Shown piece by piece: positions 1-5,615 of a stretch of 5,615 nt of DNA. Under the pieces are notes generated by a model, which had not been told where the DNA came from, made no database searches, and saw only the letters and a list, made by a program, of their open reading frames with translations. The translations under genes were made by a program, and so were the position numbers. Where the stretch lies: the IMG/VR virus record IMGVR_UViG_3300045988_089674, positions 1 to 5,615 of that record, one strand, 5' to 3'. Each line of letters begins with the position of its first letter. Position 1 is the first letter of the stretch. This stretch comes from a virus.

Positions 1-119
1 ATTTTTTTTGATGCCTGTCAATTGTCCTTTTGGTTTGAATGGCGCTTTAGCGCCTTGCCGTGCGTAGCGTATGCGGAGCTCGGCTAAATTCATTCCTTTT
101 TAGCGCTGTGCGCGTCATG
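1..119. repeat. Terminal direct repeat, copy 1 (identical to 5497..5615). Assembly overlap of a circular genome; unit length 5,496 nt.
   Basis: Reading both ends base by base, ATTTTTTTTGATGCCTGTCAATTG...GCGCGTCATG at 1-119 matches 5497-5615 with offset 5496. It includes the VP4 stop codon (115-117 = 5611-5613). Confidence 0.95.
41..54. other. GC-rich palindrome GGCGCTTTAGCGCC (second copy at 5537..5550) in the non-coding stretch between the rep stop and the promoter
   Basis: GGCGC/GCGCC arms with a 4-nt centre. No flanking T-tract on either strand, so it is not a canonical terminator. Confidence 0.6.
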
Positions 120-1104
120 CTTTCGGTTCACGCCACTTTTGCTTTAGCTTGTTTTTTTCTTTCTGAATGTTGAGATAGGTTTCATAATCCACGCTGGTGC
201 TTTGTTCGAGATTGATTAAACTTTGTACTGCGCTGCGTCTGCGTTTGGCTCTAACCTCTCTCAGCTCGTCAGAATGTGCCTTAAAACAGCTTTCCGTGTC
301 TTGGCTGGTATCTTTATCTAGAATCTTATCAAAATAGCGTGGAGGCCTTTTTTCGCGTCCTCCTGCGCATATGATGTTATCTGTTTTCAAGATTTCATCT
401 TTGTGTTCGTTCAGATACTTTTCGCCGATGCCTTTCGACATGATTCGGAACTCTGGCTCTCGGCCTTCCATCCAGTATTTTGCCGCTTGCTCTGCACCTA
501 TGGCTTTTTTGTTGACGTATTGCGCAACGTATGCGTAGCTTCCCGGCTGTGCTGGAGAAAAGTCTATCATGCCTTTGCCCCAGATTTTTTGCAACCACTC
601 GCTTTTAAAGTAGCTGTTGCCCTTTTGGTTTTTATACCATTGTGCATCCGGTGGCTTCAGTCCAAATACTATCGCGTGATAGTGTGGTCTTTTTGTTCTG
701 TCTCCATATTCGGCTGCTAGGAAGTATTTTATTGGCTTTTTGTATGCTTTCCGTAGCCGTTTTAGAAATAGTTGCACGTCTCGCTTGCTCACTGTCTGAC
801 TTTGAATGCTTTTGTAGCCTTTGATAATTTCGCCGTATGGGATATGTTCATCGTCATACGTTAGTGTTAGAAAAATCACATCGTCCCACTCTTTGGCTTC
901 TAGCTCTATTCTTGTTGCCCATTGGTCTGCCATCTGTTTGCGGCAATACTCGCATTTACCGCATGGTAACAATGCGAATTTTCCTTTTTTGATTCCGTCC
1001 ATGATGTCCGTTTGCAGTCCTTGCTTTGATAGGTTTTCCAGACTTCCCCATAGCTGCGGTTTTTTCGTGTCCATCTGAAATACTAATGGTTTTGTACATG
1101 GCAT
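115..1104 (-). CDS. VP4: Replication initiation protein VP4 (rolling-circle HUH endonuclease, phiX174 gpA-like), 329 aa
   Basis: ATG at 1104. RCR motif 1 FLTLTY (aa 78-83). HUH motif PHYHAIVFG (aa 140-148, nt 676-684). Double-tyrosine motif YVAQYVNKK (Y192 nt 529-531, Y196 nt 517-519), nearly identical to the phiX174 gpA YVAKYVNKK active site. N-terminal PCGKCEYCR cysteine cluster typical of microvirus VP4. Confidence 0.93.
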   Translation of the reverse strand: MPCTKPLVFQMDTKKPQLWGSLENLSKQGLQTDIMDGIKKGKFALLPCGKCEYCRKQMADQWATRIELEAKEWDDVIFLTLTYDDEHIPYGEIIKGYKSIQSQTVSKRDVQLFLKRLRKAYKKPIKYFLAAEYGDRTKRPHYHAIVFGLKPPDAQWYKNQKGNSYFKSEWLQKIWGKGMIDFSPAQPGSYAYVAQYVNKKAIGAEQAAKYWMEGREPEFRIMSKGIGEKYLNEHKDEILKTDNIICAGGREKRPPRYFDKILDKDTSQDTESCFKAHSDELREVRAKRRRSAVQSLINLEQSTSVDYETYLNIQKEKNKLKQKWREPKA

Positions 1105-1113
1105 TTTGTTATC

Positions 1114-1142
1114 GGCACAAGCTTCCTTGTCTATCTTGTGCC
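1114..1142 (-). promoter_or_regulatory. 8-bp stem hairpin in the rep 5' leader, 9 nt upstream of the VP4 ATG
   Basis: GGCACAAG (1114-1121) pairs with CTTGTGCC (1135-1142) across a 13-nt loop. On the mRNA strand the loop reads ATAGACAAGGAAG and holds the only SD-like element upstream of VP4. An alternative shorter pairing is ACAAG (1117-1121) with CTTGT (1126-1130). Confidence 0.45.
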
Positions 1143-1198
1143 GTTTGACACCTCGCTTCCTTTATATATTAACTTGTTGTAGTCGTAGTAGTAGTAGC

Positions 1199-1377
1199 GT
1201 GGAAACTGTTGAAAACTCGTTTTTTTTACGTTACTACGTTTATTTATTGCCTTTTTGCCTGTTGAAAACTTTGTTGAAAACTTGTTGAATTGTTGAAAGT
1301 TCGTCATTATGACGAATTTCTTTGTGCAACTTGTTGTTGAAAACCTGTTGAAAGTGTTGAAAACTCAAGTTTTCCAC
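1199..1377. repeat. Iteron-like array: eight same-orientation copies of TGTTGAA(AAC) bounded by an imperfect inverted repeat GTGGAAACT / AGTTTTCCAC
   Basis: Full 10-mer TGTTGAAAAC starts at 1207, 1260, 1272, 1335 and 1355. TGTTGAAAG starts at 1291 and 1346; TGTTGAAT starts at 1283. The flanks GTGGAAACT (1199-1207) and AGTTTTCCAC (1368-1377) are reverse complements apart from one extra A. The last copy plus the inverted copy forms the palindrome GAAAACT-CA-AGTTTTC (1359-1374). The region is non-coding, between the VP2 terminator and the VP4 start. Confidence 0.85.
1297..1319. other. Perfect palindrome/hairpin at the centre of the iteron array
   Basis: TTCGTCA (1300-1306), TTA, TGACGAA (1310-1316): 7-bp stem with a 3-nt loop. 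It extends to about 10 bp with AAG/TTT flanks (one G-T pair). Five of the eight iteron copies lie at lower coordinates and three at higher coordinates. Confidence 0.7.
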
Positions 1378-1405
1378 ACTCTCTATTTTCTGGATTATTG
1401 TTACT

Positions 1406-1433
1406 AAAAAAGGGGGATGTTTTGCCATCCCCC
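1406..1433 (-). terminator. Rho-independent terminator downstream of VP2
   Basis: The minus strand reads GGGGGATG-GCAAAA-CATCCCCC followed by TTTTTT: an 8-bp G/C-rich stem (1426-1433 / 1412-1419), a 6-nt loop and a T6 tract (1406-1411). It begins 8 nt after the VP2 stop. Confidence 0.8.
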
Positions 1434-1441
1434 TTCCTTTC

Positions 1442-2314
1442 TTAGTCTCCTGTGTATGGTTTTCCAGATACGTATCCATCTATTAGTTTGCGTCTTCTTG
1501 CTGCCCTGTTGATAGTATCTTCTGCCACTTTGTCAGCGCGGTCTTTGGCTGCTTTACCAGCCTTTTTTGCTGCTTCTTTGGCTTTTTCTCCTGCTTTCGT
1601 AAGGCCTGAGCCTAACTTGTTAGCTGTATAGGTGTACTGTTGTGCTTGTTTTGCGCTTGAGGTTGCCAGCTCGCTCGCTGCCTGTTCCCAGCTTTTCGCG
1701 CTCTTAAACTGTTTTGCGCTGGTGCTCTGTTTTGCCAGTTTTAAGTATTTGTCTGCCAGTTCTGCCGTGTTGTTGCCGTATTCGTACATTGCGGATACGC
1801 TTGCGGCCTGTGCGCTCTGCTGGTTATAGCGTTGGCTTCCAATGCTTGCAGACGCTCCTGATGGTGCGCTTGTTGCCCCGTTGGTTGCTGCTAGAATAGG
1901 ATTGATGCCCGCTGCGATCATGTCCTTTACGGTATCCTGATAGGCCGTTCCACGCATTTCTTTCTGAAACGCTCTTTCTGCTGCTGCTTCTGCACTGTTG
2001 TACTTCTTGGCGCTTGCTTGGCTTCCAGCATTTGCGAGGTTGCTCAGCAGTCCGCTGATCATTTGCAGTGCGTTTGCGGTGTTTACGCTGCTCTGGTTGC
2101 CGAATGTGGCAATACCTGTTGGCGTGCTGATTTGCGTTGATCCTATCTGCTGCGGTGCTGTTACGCTGCCGGTTGTGGTCTCGCTGCCGGTTGTGGTCTC
2201 GCTGCCTGTCTCTTGGCTGTTTTTGGCGCTGCTCTGGTTACTGTTCGTTATGATGCCTGTTATTAAGCTCAGTCCTTTCATGAGTGTTGGCAAAAGCTTT
2301 AAAAATGTCTCCAT
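1442..2314 (-). CDS. VP2: Minor capsid / DNA pilot protein VP2 (phiX174 H analogue), about 290 aa from the ATG at 2314
   Basis: Contains the conserved microvirus VP2 block AERAFQKEMRGTAYQDTVKDMIAAGINPILAA (the AG[LI]NPIL signature), a hydrophobic N-terminus METFLKLLPTLMKGLSLITGII, low-complexity Ser/Thr/Gln and Ala/Lys-rich regions, and a basic C-terminus. The start at 2314 is preferred over the track start at 2404. The 2404 start overlaps VP1 by 52 nt, reads through the SD and terminator hairpin, and has its SD-like AGAGGA directly abutting the ATG. Confidence 0.85.
   Translation of the reverse strand: METFLKLLPTLMKGLSLITGIITNSNQSSAKNSQETGSETTTGSETTTGSVTAPQQIGSTQISTPTGIATFGNQSSVNTANALQMISGLLSNLANAGSQASAKKYNSAEAAAERAFQKEMRGTAYQDTVKDMIAAGINPILAATNGATSAPSGASASIGSQRYNQQSAQAASVSAMYEYGNNTAELADKYLKLAKQSTSAKQFKSAKSWEQAASELATSSAKQAQQYTYTANKLGSGLTKAGEKAKEAAKKAGKAAKDRADKVAEDTINRAARRRKLIDGYVSGKPYTGD
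2165..2212. repeat. 18-bp perfect tandem duplication inside VP2 (GCTGCCGGTTGTGGTCTC x2) with a degenerate third unit
   Basis: 2165-2182 is identical to 2183-2200, and 2201-2206 repeats the first 6 nt. It is in frame and encodes ETTTGS-ETTTGS within ...SQETGSETTTGSETTTGSVTAP... Confidence 0.9.
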
Positions 2315-2316
2315 CC

Positions 2317-2341
2317 AAAAATAGCCCCGCTTTTGCGGGGC
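2317..2341 (-). terminator. Intrinsic terminator-like hairpin between VP1 and VP2 (may also act as an SD-to-start bridging structure)
   Basis: The minus strand reads GCCCCGC-AAAA-GCGGGGC (2341-2324) followed by TATTTTTGG and then the ATG at 2314. The SD GGAGG (2348-2344) lies immediately 5' of the stem. Confidence 0.65.
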
Positions 2342-2352
2342 TTCCTCCTTTC

Positions 2353-3981
2353 TTAGATTCTCTCGATACCGGGAATGCTGTAAATAGGCATTTCGCGATA
2401 CCATTCCTCTGTGAAATAGAAGTCACACAAGAACTGGTGTGATACGTCGCTTGTTACTGCAATCGTTCGGTCAATGTTCTGCTGTCCTTCTTGAATCCAC
2501 TCTGCCGAGAGACGTGGAAGTTTGTCATAATCGTCTGCATAGTGCCATGCGTCCAAACTGGTCTGATAGTTTGACCGCATTTCTCCGGTTACGTAAGATG
2601 GCTTGTATCGGTAATCCGCCCAAGCCTCTTGGTATCCGAAGATTTCTTCGTCTTCCGAAGTGCCTTGTGCATAGATTTCGCGATTATATACTGGCTGTTC
2701 GCCCAGTGCTGCTAATCGCGGGTCGTAGTATGTGAACCGCCCGCCGCGTGTCCACTTTGTCGCAAGTCCTTGCTGATAGCTGTGCTCTACTCGTATCACT
2801 GCCAGACCAATGATATAACCGTATTCGGTTGCTGCATAGTCCACCATCTCCTTGCTGCATGTGGTCAGACTGTATGCAGCCGTATTGCCCAGTGCCTGTC
2901 CGGTCGTGGTGTCCGTCTGGCTCGTCTGAACAACCTGATTGACATTGATCGCAATGCGCTGGCCGCCGATGTACTCAGGAATTTGAAGCCGGCTGTCCGG
3001 TGACGTTACACCCCATGTGCCGGAAAGGAACTCTCTGTACCTTGTGCCGTTGCGTGCATCTGCTTCAAAGATGTGCTGCAGTGCGATAGCCATGCGTAAA
3101 TCTTGGATGCTGATCGCGCTTACTCCGGTGAGGTCTGCGCCCAGGAATTTCATTTCAATGGTTTGGTCATCTTTGCCGGTTACTGACATTACGTTAGCGA
3201 AGTTCTGCATAGTGCCGTTTTCAGTCAGGTTTAGCTGAGTAGATGCTGGTGTTTCTTTTGTCAGTTCTGCATTGTTATACAGTTTTACCGGTGCATTGGC
3301 CGTCAGGCCGATTTCTACAGGGTCATTTTTCATCGGTTTCGGCAAACAGCTGGTGAAGTAGTCGTGAAACTTCCCCGCCTTCGCTGGCTTTTTTCCGTAA
3401 ATATATGCTTCGTTCGTTATCGTGGTGGCTGACGGTAAGTTTGCGTTCATATCGTTTCCGGTTGCCGGGTCGTCATCGTTTCCCGCTTCATCCGTTTTTT
3501 TGTAACCTAGCATCATCGGCGCTTCTAGGTTTTCATCTCTAAACCACTCGTTATAAATCATGGCGTAGGCGCGTGCTGGCAGCGCGTTTACTTTGATTTC
3601 TCCTTTTACTTCGGTCGGAAGTCCGAAATAGTCTCCAATGCTTCCGTTTTTCAGTCCACTTTTTCCGCCGATTTTGCTGGTCGGTGTTGAGTATTCGATC
3701 TTTTCTGCCCAGTAGTCGGTGTCGTTCTCGCCGAACATGTTCTCCCAGTGCTCCCACAGCAGACGGCACGGAACAAAGAAGAAATAGGTATCCATGTACG
3801 CGTTATCCATGATTGGGTAGATAGGTGTGCTCATACGGATGAGACCGTTTAGGCGTACTTTTGCTGTATCGCCCGGTAGTACTTCATCATAGTAGATGGG
3901 TACCAGGTCGCCTTCGTTGATGGTCGTTAAGAGCTGGTGACTCCGGTCAAATTTGCTTCGTGGTCGTTCCATTCGCGGCAC
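2353..3981 (-). CDS. VP1: Major capsid protein VP1 (Microviridae F-like capsid), 539-542 aa
   Basis: Hallmark microvirus capsid blocks are present: SKFDRSHQLLTTINEGDLVPIYYDEVLPGDT, FFVPCRLLWEHWENMFGE, IYNEWFRDENL, DLRMAIALQHIFEADARNGTRYREFLSGTWGV..DSRLQIPEYIGG and RFTYYDPRLAALGEQ. The track start at 3981 is GTG, and the first ATG is at 3972 (MERPRSKF...). The start is therefore uncertain by 3 codons. Confidence 0.95.
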   Translation of the reverse strand: MPRMERPRSKFDRSHQLLTTINEGDLVPIYYDEVLPGDTAKVRLNGLIRMSTPIYPIMDNAYMDTYFFFVPCRLLWEHWENMFGENDTDYWAEKIEYSTPTSKIGGKSGLKNGSIGDYFGLPTEVKGEIKVNALPARAYAMIYNEWFRDENLEAPMMLGYKKTDEAGNDDDPATGNDMNANLPSATTITNEAYIYGKKPAKAGKFHDYFTSCLPKPMKNDPVEIGLTANAPVKLYNNAELTKETPASTQLNLTENGTMQNFANVMSVTGKDDQTIEMKFLGADLTGVSAISIQDLRMAIALQHIFEADARNGTRYREFLSGTWGVTSPDSRLQIPEYIGGQRIAINVNQVVQTSQTDTTTGQALGNTAAYSLTTCSKEMVDYAATEYGYIIGLAVIRVEHSYQQGLATKWTRGGRFTYYDPRLAALGEQPVYNREIYAQGTSEDEEIFGYQEAWADYRYKPSYVTGEMRSNYQTSLDAWHYADDYDKLPRLSAEWIQEGQQNIDRTIAVTSDVSHQFLCDFYFTEEWYREMPIYSIPGIERI

Positions 3982-3997
3982 TTGCGCGAAATGGTTC

Positions 3998-4453
3998 TCA
4001 CTGTTTCGGTTCGTTTTCCTTCACCTCTTTCTTTTTTTCTTCCGGCTTCTGCTGTTCGGTCTGCTTCTGCTGTTCGGTCTGCTTCTGCTGTTCGGTCTGC
4101 TGCATCTGTTTCAGCCGTTCCATTGTTTCGGCTGCTGTCTCGGCCGTTGCGTGCATCGTCATGATATCCTTCGGCAGATTTTCAAGGTCAGTTCCTTCGG
4201 TGTATATCATGCTTTTTGCCTTTATGCTGGTATCTCCAGCTTCCAGTCTTGCGATCGCGCTTGCAAGGTCGTAGCCCTCGCCGGCTCGCTGGATTTTTTC
4301 GTATATGTTTTCATCCGGCTGTTCGATGTAGTCTGTAGTGCCGTTGGGTCGTTTGACTGCTTTCCACGTTGGCGCGGTCTTGCTGCCCGGATTGTTTGCC
4401 ACTCTCTCGGTCGGCATTCCGTAGTACCTTACCAGTGTATTAGGATTTAACAT
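3998..4453 (-). CDS. VP3: Internal scaffolding protein VP3-like, 151 aa
   Basis: Its position immediately upstream of VP1, its size (about 150 aa) and its acidic/Gln-rich composition match gokushovirus VP3. Strong SD: AAGGAG, 7 nt, then the ATG at 4453. It overlaps the VP5 3' end by 14 nt. The call rests on synteny, size and composition; the sequence motifs are weak by eye. Confidence 0.7.
   Translation of the reverse strand: MLNPNTLVRYYGMPTERVANNPGSKTAPTWKAVKRPNGTTDYIEQPDENIYEKIQRAGEGYDLASAIARLEAGDTSIKAKSMIYTEGTDLENLPKDIMTMHATAETAAETMERLKQMQQTEQQKQTEQQKQTEQQKPEEKKKEVKENEPKQ
4045..4098. repeat. 18-bp perfect tandem repeat x3 inside VP3 (GCTTCTGCTGTTCGGTCT)
   Basis: 4045-4062, 4063-4080 and 4081-4098 are identical. 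The repeat is in frame and encodes QTEQQK x3 near the VP3 C-terminus. Confidence 0.95.
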
Positions 4454-4694
4454 TGGCTGTCTCCTTCAGGTCGATGAGCCATGCGATGTGTTCAGGCATT
4501 GCTTCGCTCATGTAGCCCGTTTCAGTGTCGAACTCGCCTAACTCTACGAGTGAAATATCTTCGATTTCACTCGGTTTGCTTTCGTTGGCTTTCCATCGTG
4601 CCGTCCGGACCGCCTGTGCTCTGTTGTTCTGCAAAAATGGCTGTGAGTAGCCTTTGGTCAGTGCATCGTGGAATGAGTAGAATTTCAGTTTCAT
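4440..4694 (-). CDS. VP5: VP5-like small non-structural protein (proposed phiX174 C analogue), 84 aa
   Basis: The pattern MKLKFYSFHDALTKGYSQPF..N...A.R.......(acidic)..L.ELGEFDTETG matches my recollection of the conserved gokushovirus VP5 pattern (Y..yD.ka..y..PF...n...A.R.f...v......ED..L..iG.fD..tG). Size and position upstream of VP3 fit. SD: AAGGAG 7 nt before the ATG at 4694. Confidence 0.75.
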   Translation of the reverse strand: MKLKFYSFHDALTKGYSQPFLQNNRAQAVRTARWKANESKPSEIEDISLVELGEFDTETGYMSEAMPEHIAWLIDLKETANVKS

Positions 4695-4706
4695 GTTTTT
4701 TCTCCT

Positions 4707-4823
4707 TTACTCTTTGTCTTTGTTTGCATCCTTTAGTGCGTGGTAAATTTCATCGAGCTTTTCAAGAATGCTCATCATCAGTTCGATTGCTTCCTTGACG
4801 TCCTTGACCTTAATTAGTGCCAT
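4707..4823 (-). CDS. Hypothetical 38-aa amphipathic helical protein (not in the ORF track): MALIKVKDVKEAIELMMSILEKLDEIYHALKDANKDKE
   Basis: Hand translation. The ATG at 4823 is preceded by AAAGGAGGTGAATTA (GGAGGTGA SD, about 5 nt spacing). The stop TAA (4709-4707) abuts the SD of VP5, and the ORF exactly fills the gap between neighbouring genes. No similarity recognised. Confidence 0.6.
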   Translation of the reverse strand: MALIKVKDVKEAIELMMSILEKLDEIYHALKDANKDKE

Positions 4824-4854
4824 TAATTCACCTCCTTTCTTTGGTTTGTGTCGT

Positions 4855-4971
4855 TTATAGCCGGATACCGCCCCGCGATACCTTCGGCCTTACGTTGATG
4901 TTTTTTACCCGCTTTGCAGTCTGGGTAAAGCGTTTCTGGTCGCCTTGACCCGCTCCGCTTCTGTGTGCCAT
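4855..4971 (-). CDS. Small highly basic protein, 38 aa, candidate J/VP8-like DNA-binding/packaging protein (not in the ORF track): MAHRSGAGQGDQKRFTQTAKRVKNINVRPKVSRGGIRL
   Basis: Hand translation. The ATG at 4971 is preceded by AAAGGAGTAAATA (AAGGAG SD, 6-nt spacing), with an in-frame TAA two codons upstream. The peptide has 6 Arg, 4 Lys and 1 Asp (net about +9). It is the same length as phiX174 J (38 aa). I recall the C-terminal RGGIRL as recurrent in gokushovirus small basic proteins, but this is unverified. Confidence 0.65.
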   Translation of the reverse strand: MAHRSGAGQGDQKRFTQTAKRVKNINVRPKVSRGGIRL

Positions 4972-5055
4972 TATTTACTCCTTTATGTGTTTTTGTTTTG
5001 TTTCATTCACAATTTGTTTTTTTGGTCTGGTCTCGTGCATTCCATGATTTCATTG

Positions 5056-5451
5056 TTACACCCCCTTTCTGTATTTTTTCCCGGTTCGTACATCAAAGTG
5101 CACCCAACTTTTGTACACGATAATGCCACATTCATCCGGGATGATTTCATTTAGTTTGTTGGCAATTTCTTTTGGGCTCATTCCATCTACTTTGATGTCT
5201 GCGGCCATGCCGCGCATGTGATATGAGTATTTTGCTCCACCGCATTTTGTGTTCCACTCTGGTGTTCTGTATCCGCTGGTGATGATTACCGGTTTTCCTA
5301 TCTTATGTCGTAAGATATCCAGAATGGTGTATAAGTAGTCGTCTATGAATACTACCGGACTGCCGTCTTTACATGCAAATTCTTTTACTTTGAAGTGTCT
5401 TCCTAGTTTTACGTTTCCGTCTGTGTTTACAAGGTAGCTTTTAATGCTCAT
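5056..5451 (-). CDS. Zinc D,D-/L,D-peptidase of the M15 (Peptidase_M15_3 / LAS) type, putative endolysin, 131 aa
   Basis: Motifs: FKVKEFACKDG, SGYRTPEWN..CGGAKYSYH(78)MRGMAAD(85) (H-x6-D zinc ligands, nt 5218-5220 and 5197-5199) and SWVH(118)FDV (third ligand, nt 5098-5100). SD-like AGAGGAAA lies about 5 nt before the ATG at 5451. No N-terminal signal or TM segment. Confidence 0.85.
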   Translation of the reverse strand: MSIKSYLVNTDGNVKLGRHFKVKEFACKDGSPVVFIDDYLYTILDILRHKIGKPVIITSGYRTPEWNTKCGGAKYSYHMRGMAADIKVDGMSPKEIANKLNEIIPDECGIIVYKSWVHFDVRTGKKYRKGV

Positions 5452-5475
5452 AGCCGTTTCCTCTCTTTTTGTTTT

Positions 5476-5495
5476 TTATGATATTATTATGATAT
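5476..5495. repeat. Direct repeat TTATGATAT x2 with 11-bp phasing (5476-5484, 5487-5495), overlapping the -10 region and predicted transcription start
   Basis: Read directly. On the minus strand it is ATATCATAA-TA-ATATCATAA. Confidence 0.8.
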
Positions 5496-5517
5496 CATTT
5501 TTTTTGATGCCTGTCAA
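5489..5517 (-). promoter_or_regulatory. Strong sigma70-type promoter for the main minus-strand transcription unit
   Basis: The minus strand reads TTGACA (5517-5512, perfect -35), a 17-nt spacer, then TGaTATCAT (extended -10; TATCAT at 5494-5489). It lies about 40 nt upstream of the peptidase ATG. It straddles the arbitrary linearisation point, so it is intact only in this copy (the -35 is duplicated at 16-21). Confidence 0.7.
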
Positions 5518-5615
5518 TTGTCCTTTTGGTTTGAATGGCGCTTTAGCGCCTTGCCGTGCGTAGCGTATGCGGAGCTCGGCTAAATTCATTCCTTTTTAGC
5601 GCTGTGCGCGTCATG
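5497..5615. repeat. Terminal direct repeat, copy 2 (identical to 1..119)
   Basis: See copy 1; offset exactly 5496 nt. Confidence 0.95.

Follow-up and report, generated by a model that had tools for sequence, protein, structure and literature searches.

How does a microvirus that encodes a murein peptidase, and neither a secretion signal on that enzyme nor a recognisable holin, bring the enzyme to the cell wall? The question arises from positions 1 to 5,615 of IMG/VR virus record IMGVR_UViG_3300045988_089674 (hereafter the window, meaning this whole stretch of 5,615 nucleotides (nt)), and specifically from one gene on its minus strand:

5056..5451, minus strand: zinc peptidoglycan peptidase of the M15_3 type with a probable LAS fold, 131 amino acids (aa), assigned by PF08291, PHROG 894 and alignment with 1LBU

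The presence of such a peptidase in gut gokushoviruses and its proposal as an endolysin have been known since 2012. Five gut gokushoviruses and six alpaviruses were described as carrying M15_3 peptidase genes; horizontal transfer was inferred, holins were noted beside the bacterial homologues, and an endolysin role was proposed (Roux et al., 2012; PMC3394797). The public record KX513876.1 already annotates its copy as 'peptidase M15', and the initial annotation of the window had rightly suspected that presence alone might not be new. How an endolysin is released without a holin is a genuine question, neither specific to the window nor newly raised here: no lysis gene is established for gokushoviruses, as the initial annotation also held (PMC7062461), and in the literature no paper was found that addresses how microviral peptidases cross the membrane. 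The account favoured here, to which we give slightly better than an even chance, is that the gene encodes a horizontally acquired, accessory endolysin that remains cytoplasmic and is released through a membrane lesion of non-holin origin.

The peptidase and the search for a holin

Sequence comparison confirms that the predicted protein belongs to Peptidase_M15_3 and carries an intact zinc triad, in agreement with the identity and the complete H-x6-D...H motif first proposed for it. The match to PF08291 (MEROPS family M15, clan MD) has E=1.4e-22 and 80.3 bits against a gathering cut-off of 23.2 and spans residues 19-120 of the peptidase and positions 2-108 of the 108 in the profile; a weaker second match is to the Peptidase_M15_2/DUF882 profile, and PHROG 894, annotated 'endolysin', is matched with E=7.5e-42. 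The proposed zinc ligands H78, D85 and H118, along with D120 and R62, are invariant in alignments of microviral and tailed-phage homologues, and among 86 related microvirus copies H78 and D85 are kept in all 86 and H118 in 85, with D120 and R62 likewise kept in 85-86. H78 and D85 align with the H-x6-D zinc-ligand motif (SRHMYGHAAD) of the Streptomyces albus zinc DD-peptidase 1LBU, the sole match in a sequence search of the PDB and hence a sign that there is no close solved structure. Identity to 1LBU is about 26% over 88 aligned columns, so that substrate specificity is not transferable from it, and it is in general terms that the protein would be expected to hydrolyse murein peptides. Orthology to the L,D-endopeptidase MepK was considered and rejected, the NCBIfam equivalog NF053624 scoring 40.2 bits against a cut-off of 185, which indicates a related protein only.

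A LAS fold is supported with moderate confidence by structure prediction. The AlphaFold2 model, built from a 27-sequence alignment, has a mean predicted local distance difference test score (pLDDT) of 72.6 and a predicted template modelling score of 0.72. In a Foldseek comparison with the PDB the top 18 matches are 1LBU followed by 17 hedgehog N-domains (probability 0.94-1.00, E from 2.6e-3, template modelling scores 0.44-0.50), and VanY, LysECD7 and LdcB come next, all of them LAS-fold proteins.

Hydropathy was taken as the mean Kyte-Doolittle (KD) value over 19 residues, with a transmembrane threshold of 1.6 and with Kyte-Doolittle as the sole scale. By this measure no signal peptide or signal-arrest-release (SAR) segment was found in the peptidase, whose highest 19-residue mean is 0.84 and whose N-terminus (MSIKSYLVNTDGNVKLGRHFKVKEF) is hydrophilic and without a hydrophobic core. 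The coding strand was scanned over every stop-free 19-residue segment in the three minus-strand frames, start codons being disregarded, and 0 of 3215 such segments reached KD 1.6; the peak, at 1.51, is the N-terminal segment FLKLLPTLMKGLSLITGII of the DNA pilot protein VP2 (2249..2305, minus strand). At the same threshold no small membrane open reading frame (ORF) of the phiX174 E type was found in any coding-strand frame. The earlier statements that the enzyme has no secretion signal or SAR segment, and that the coding strand holds no ORF with a transmembrane segment, are borne out by these figures. Of the parts of a canonical holin-endolysin system, a cytoplasmic, signal-less muralytic enzyme is present and a transmembrane holin is absent from the coding strand, and the peptidase falls outside the class of SAR or signal-peptide endolysins.

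The KD scan was extended to the coding strands of 86 related peptidase-carrying genomes (80 IMG/VR loci and six GenBank genomes), in which no transmembrane ORF recurs and of which 85 of 86 encode no holin-like protein. The only segment at KD 1.5 or above that does recur across these relatives is again the VP2 N-terminus (1.5-1.57). Exceptions outside VP2 number three: a 25-aa ORF close to a contig end, a 49-aa ORF, and a 10.9-kb contig, about twice genome size, with many hydrophobic ORFs. The 49-aa ORF, from relative L047, was weighed as a family holin and set aside, being overprinted in VP1, having a TTG start and occurring in one genome only. The VP2 N-termini of the relatives are either a hydrophobic helix or a Gly/Ala-rich stretch such as MGALSGILTALNVAAALNVAGNVA, resembling glycine-zipper membrane helices.

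Expression, accessory status and origin

Between the VP4 stop and the peptidase gene lie 159 nt, which hold the following elements:

5457..5465, minus strand: Shine-Dalgarno-like GAGAGGAAA before the peptidase ATG, read from the sequence
5489..5517, minus strand: sigma70-like promoter site TTGACA-17-TATCAT with an extended -10 TG, an 11/12 match recognised by consensus only
5537..5550, and again 41..54 in the terminal repeat, no strand assigned: palindrome GGCGCTTTAGCGCC, placed after the VP4 stop and ahead of the promoter-like site, an exact match

The promoter-like site (5517..5489) lies 37 nt upstream of the peptidase ATG and is the sole 11/12 match in the window, so that the gene does stand directly behind the only strong promoter-like site, as had been noted. 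Its description as the first gene is accurate with respect to that promoter and loses its meaning otherwise, the genome being circular and VP4 lying immediately before it. In 73 of 86 genomes (the window and 85 relatives) the peptidase has a coding-strand site matching at least 10/12 in the 400 nt before it; such sites number about 1.5 per genome, which argues that the position of the promoter is conserved. Shine-Dalgarno sites of the AAGGAG/GGAGG type precede the peptidase, two small 38-aa genes, VP5 and VP3. Of the 86 related microvirus loci (L001-L086), 58 contain the exact palindrome GGCGCTTTAGCGCC, against 0 of 95 other fetched loci; it stands upstream of the peptidase in the loci checked and could be an origin, nick site or terminator element.

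A search with the peptidase protein returned 1307 clusters (90% identity) at E of at most 1e-10, and the best 120 of these 1307 are all at least 80% identical to the query and lie on contigs of up to about 8 kb, many of 5.3-6.2 kb. The median ratio of nonsynonymous to synonymous substitution rates (dN/dS) of the peptidase over 86 pairs is 0.14, indicating purifying selection. Four relatives (three complete and circular, one partial; VP1 47-49% identical) are without the peptidase, and on the strength of these sister genomes the gene is regarded as accessory. They retain the same slot together with both of the conserved 38-aa genes that lie between the peptidase and VP5, which the initial annotation had missed:

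4707..4823, minus strand: acidic amphipathic 38-aa protein MALIKVKDVKEAIELMMSILEKLDEIYHALKDANKDKE, with a strong AAAGGAGGTG Shine-Dalgarno site, dN/dS 0.12
4855..4971, minus strand: VP8/J-like basic protein of 38 aa ending RGGIRL, matching phrog_10695, with an AAGGAG Shine-Dalgarno site, dN/dS 0.29

The second of these resembles the VP8/J DNA-binding protein of gokushoviruses and is present in 87 of 87 genomes. The MALIKVKDVKEAIELMMSILEKLDEIYHALKDANKDKE gene is present in the 87 of 87 genomes that carry the peptidase and in the four relatives that do not, and of the 34 GenBank records that have it nearly all leave it unannotated. Its product has a hydrophobic moment of up to 0.57, a net charge of -2 and a KD maximum of 0.93, without a transmembrane segment, and no family match was found for it in NCBIfam or PHROGs. 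The MALIKVKDVKEAIELMMSILEKLDEIYHALKDANKDKE protein was rejected as a dedicated partner of the peptidase, being encoded also in the four peptidase-less relatives.

Three arrangements of the VP8-like gene, the other 38-aa gene and the peptidase occur, depending on the subclade. The slot between VP4 and the 38-aa gene is itself variable (L001, L005, L006, L088-L091), with unrelated hydrophilic ORFs of 54-95 aa that stand beside the peptidase or replace it, for example a Cys-rich ORF of 58-61 aa and an ORF of 68-75 aa ending QWQSSV. In one peptidase-less genome, L089 (KT264799.1), this accessory slot holds a 24-aa ORF (3972..4046) with a transmembrane-like segment and a basic tail (MVDVIQSIAIMLLSIAVIINAKRR, KD 2.42). 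Such ORFs are uncommon on this A-rich coding strand, and the product is possibly a small lysis peptide.

The closest tailed-phage homologue of the peptidase is the endolysin (gp82) of Faecalibacterium phage FP_oengus, at 43-47% identity, downstream of which lie a hypothetical gene and then an annotated holin; a related prophage fragment with a similar endolysin encodes Holin_SPP1. A scan of GTDB species genomes gave best matches of 40-52% identity in Acutalibacteraceae, other Clostridia/Eubacteriales, Faecalibacterium and Oscillibacter, and nothing above 52% that would be an integrated copy naming the host. Among Clostridia loci with adequate flanks, 58 of 65 have a small same-strand transmembrane ORF within 1.5 kb, a raw count that may include chance neighbours. 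The microviral peptidase has no segment that is absent from these holin-associated homologues, and the basic C-terminus is common to both groups. Contigs of 5.4-5.5 kb that looked like microviruses with FP_oengus-like endolysins (80-85% identity) were rejected as such: the single contig retrieved, L095, is a piece of a tailed prophage that encodes Holin_SPP1 and an integrase.

Every long ORF of the window lies on the minus strand. Bases 1..119 recur at 5497..5615 as an exact direct repeat at the two ends, from which the window is read as a circular genome of 5496 nt with an assembly overlap; overlaps of 55, 99 or 119 nt occur on many related IMG/VR contigs and resemble assembler k-mer sizes. 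The order in coding orientation is VP4, peptidase, the two 38-aa genes, VP5, VP3, VP1 and VP2, and the remaining features are these:

115..1104, minus strand: VP4 replication initiator (PF23343, phrog_942)
1442..2314, minus strand: VP2, the DNA pilot protein, which probably starts at M31 of the long ORF (phrog_18604 and other pilot-protein PHROGs)
2323..2342, minus strand: terminator-like GC-rich hairpin right behind the VP1 stop, 8 pairs of which 7 are G-C, recognised by consensus only
2353..3981, minus strand: VP1 major capsid protein (PF02305, 496.9 bits)
3998..4453, minus strand: VP3-like internal scaffolding protein (PF09675, 21.9 bits, under the cut-off of 25; positioned as the annotated VP3 of relatives)
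4440..4694, minus strand: VP5 (Phage_ORF5; PF20577, 49.3 bits)

By its predicted gene content the genome is that of a Gokushovirinae-type microvirus, with a VP1/VP2/VP4 core plus VP3 and VP5 and without a phiX-type spike or E gene. The nearest public records, both human-gut Gokushovirinae, are KX513876.1 (85% identity over 97% of the genome) and MT121961.1 (86%, 95%). The VP2-VP4 gap, at 336 nt the second large non-coding region, contains a 12-nt unit, TGTTGAAAACTT, repeated 2.6 times (1260..1289), and a hairpin with a 10-bp stem (1410..1435) directly after the VP2 stop; both are possible replication or regulatory elements. Perfect 18-nt tandem repeats occur within two genes, giving QQTEQQK repeats at the VP3 C-terminus (4045..4101) and ETGSETTTGS repeats near the VP2 N-terminus (2164..2206).

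Routes to the murein

In the favoured account a gut gokushovirus lineage would have taken the peptidase from the holin-endolysin cassettes of tailed phages or prophages, most likely those of gut Clostridia. Transcription of the gene would start at the conserved promoter behind VP4 and take in the small-protein, scaffold and capsid genes, and the enzyme would build up in the cytoplasm, out of reach of its substrate, until a breach of the cytoplasmic membrane allowed it to cut the peptide stems or cross-links of murein. Canonical endolysins accumulate in the cytoplasm in active and harmless form, and it is the membrane lesion that sets the timing of lysis. Early expression is therefore no paradox, and the puzzle originally seen in synthesis from the start of infection falls away. 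The wider contention that export and timing are both open has to be divided: timing would be set by the lesion and not by when the enzyme is made, and the question of how the membrane is breached stands.

A canonical holin is not the breach-maker, since none is encoded, and because the peptidase-less sister genomes are also without a recognisable lysis gene the lesion probably stems from a core gokushovirus function, which would be active in those genomes as well. The gokushovirus SpV4 lyses wall-less Spiroplasma, which implies a membrane-directed activity independent of murein. The sole membrane-competent candidate in the sequence would be the hydrophobic N-terminus of VP2.

Several points weigh against this account. 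Naming the VP2 N-terminus as the lesion maker is pure conjecture, and we infer that the enzyme serves release, not entry, as we do the origin of the lesion and the identity of the host. The structural model is only moderately good (pLDDT 72.6), with weak Foldseek E-values (2.6e-3). A pore-former that is amphipathic or only weakly hydrophobic would escape a Kyte-Doolittle scan. The affiliation with Clostridia rests on identities of at most 52%, found with search patterns biased to the Faecalibacterium-type sequences of the query alignment. Trace amounts of Gp7, the hydrolase of microvirus Ebor, were detected by LC-MS/MS in purified virions, which leaves room for a role in entry (PMC11980548). 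A narrower version of the account, in which surplus VP2, inserting by its hydrophobic N-terminus, or the 38-aa amphipathic protein makes the non-holin lesion that frees the signal-less endolysin, and in which the hosts are monoderm gut Clostridia, is unlikely taken as a whole; if it were true, these would, with such hosts, be the first microviruses of Gram-positive-type bacteria, and the recruitment of a murein hydrolase would be explained.

An enzyme for entry, a few copies of which in or on the T=1 virion would open the murein locally at DNA delivery, is the alternative that survives best, and we hold it to be improbable. Virion-associated peptidoglycan hydrolases act in this manner in many phages, neither a holin nor a signal peptide would be required, which matches the absence of both here, and local digestion could be of help if the host were one of the thick-walled Clostridia. 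The peptidase is, however, a stand-alone ORF of 131 aa, unfused to VP2 or VP1, its closest homologues are endolysins of lysis cassettes and not structural modules, and sister genomes infect without it. The presence of the verified hydrolase Gp7 in Ebor virions is at trace level and may be lysate contamination (PMC11980548).

It is a little less probable again that the system is an ordinary holin-endolysin pair whose holin has been overlooked, because it lies on the complementary strand, is very weakly hydrophobic, or is amphipathic like the product of the 38-aa gene. The complementary strand has 398 segments at KD of at least 1.6 and many strongly hydrophobic ORFs, among them 3953..4450 and 4945..5154, and one complementary-strand ORF has been noted beside a microviral peptidase (Roux et al., 2012; PMC3394797). 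That strand is, however, T-rich (AT skew -0.2 to -0.57) and the frames of these plus-strand ORFs are open in just 0-63% of alignable relatives, so that they are regarded as compositional; as hidden holins they were judged spurious, and no strong promoter-like site is directed to that strand. The 38-aa MALIKVKDVKEAIELMMSILEKLDEIYHALKDANKDKE gene has conservation, purifying selection, amphipathic character and a constant interval in its favour; its product is nevertheless acidic, is without a transmembrane segment and is encoded in peptidase-less genomes too. Small transmembrane proteins also appear to lie near the peptidase in other microvirus clades and in Ebor, as considered below.

Export of the enzyme by an autonomous or host-mediated route with late activation, through an unrecognised host pathway or a membrane-crossing basic C-terminus, is quite improbable. 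Some Gram-positive phages are documented to export signal-less endolysins without a holin, and the C-terminus of the peptidase is indeed basic (RTGKKYRKGV). K126 and R128 are, however, equally conserved in holin-associated tailed-phage homologues, which makes them part of the fold rather than a microviral addition, and Sec, Tat and SAR features are absent. Least probable is a non-lytic role, whether remodelling of host murein during infection or the status of a selfish passenger gene: the gene is accessory and its product distantly resembles DUF882 and the housekeeping endopeptidase MepK, but the MepK score is far under its cut-off (40 vs 185), murein is out of reach for a cytoplasmic enzyme, and both the strong purifying selection and the count of more than 1300 clusters, found in genomes whose size is constrained to about 5.5 kb, speak for a gain to the phage.

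Comparison with known systems

The window adds another member to a large annotated group and presents no new phenomenon. What the analysis adds to the published account is a clade-wide test for transmembrane ORFs, the accessory status of the gene, the conservation of its promoter and the selection acting on it. Gokushoviruses are among the most abundant phages of gut and ocean; an endolysin-bearing, holin-less lineage and its endolysin-less sisters form a natural comparison set for the membrane-breaching function. The likeness of the peptidase to Clostridia prophage endolysins is, besides, among the few pointers to which hosts gut gokushoviruses infect. Four gokushoviral copies have been tied to Faecalibacterium and Anaerofustis, with a Clostridiales affiliation (Roux et al., 2012; PMC3394797). 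Peptidases have since been taken as lysis-associated accessory genes (Kirchberger et al., 2022; PMC9239249), and an M15 peptidase occurs in most marine Occultatumvirinae, where a lysis role is assumed (PMC11499846).

Small transmembrane ORFs adjoining the peptidase or in other intergenic gaps, several of them annotated as hypothetical, were found in six peptidase-carrying microviruses of other clades:

L180, 5566..5859 and 6340..6459: small transmembrane ORFs
L181, 2607..2783: small transmembrane ORF, behind the pilot gene and about 1.4 kb from the peptidase
L179, 30..119: small transmembrane ORF
L178, 3707..3928: small transmembrane ORF
L176, 3467..3679: small transmembrane ORF
L177, 5122..5286: small transmembrane ORF

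Three short ones share a start rich in lysine that leads into an Ala/Ser/Gly-rich helix. A PHROG search of these ORFs and of both 38-aa proteins gave a sole match, to phrog_10695 (VP8-like). Chance adjacency is likely for some of them, the coding strands being T-rich with 20-30 hydrophobic alternative-frame ORFs each. Together with Gp1 of Ebor, a predicted membrane protein of 45 aa (PMC11980548), they suggest that some other microviruses may have conventional partners for their peptidases; if so, the absence of a holin is a trait of this clade and not of microviruses at large.

Ebor, a Tainavirinae phage of Rhodobacter, offers the first case verified by zymogram, in which Gp7 degrades peptidoglycan (Bardy et al., 2025; PMC11980548). 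Gp7 is likewise a small stand-alone murein hydrolase and an accessory microvirus gene; it belongs to another subfamily and apparently, judged by description, to another enzyme family (HHpred match 6SSC), and Ebor encodes the membrane protein Gp1 whereas the window has no such protein. Protein E of phiX174 resembles the present case in that a microvirus lyses its host without a holin, but E is a small overprinted transmembrane protein, non-enzymatic, that achieves single-gene lysis by inhibition of MraY, and the window protein is a soluble hydrolase. 1LBU, the zinc D-Ala-D-Ala carboxypeptidase of S. albus G (M15A), is the best PDB match in sequence and in fold, with the H-x6-D motif aligned; it differs as a secreted bacterial enzyme of 213 aa with an additional N-terminal domain. 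FP_oengus gp82 and the Clostridia prophage endolysins are single-domain M15_3 proteins of about 135 aa, 43-52% identical to the peptidase and with the same invariant residues, and they stand in lysis cassettes with a holin, whereas the microvirus retained the enzyme alone. Closest of all are KX513876.1 and the M15_3 peptidases of gut Gokushovirinae and Alpavirinae, which share the Pfam family, the virus group and the slot downstream of VP4; from the published gut gokushovirus peptidases nothing essential distinguishes the one described here, and the window is a further member of their number.

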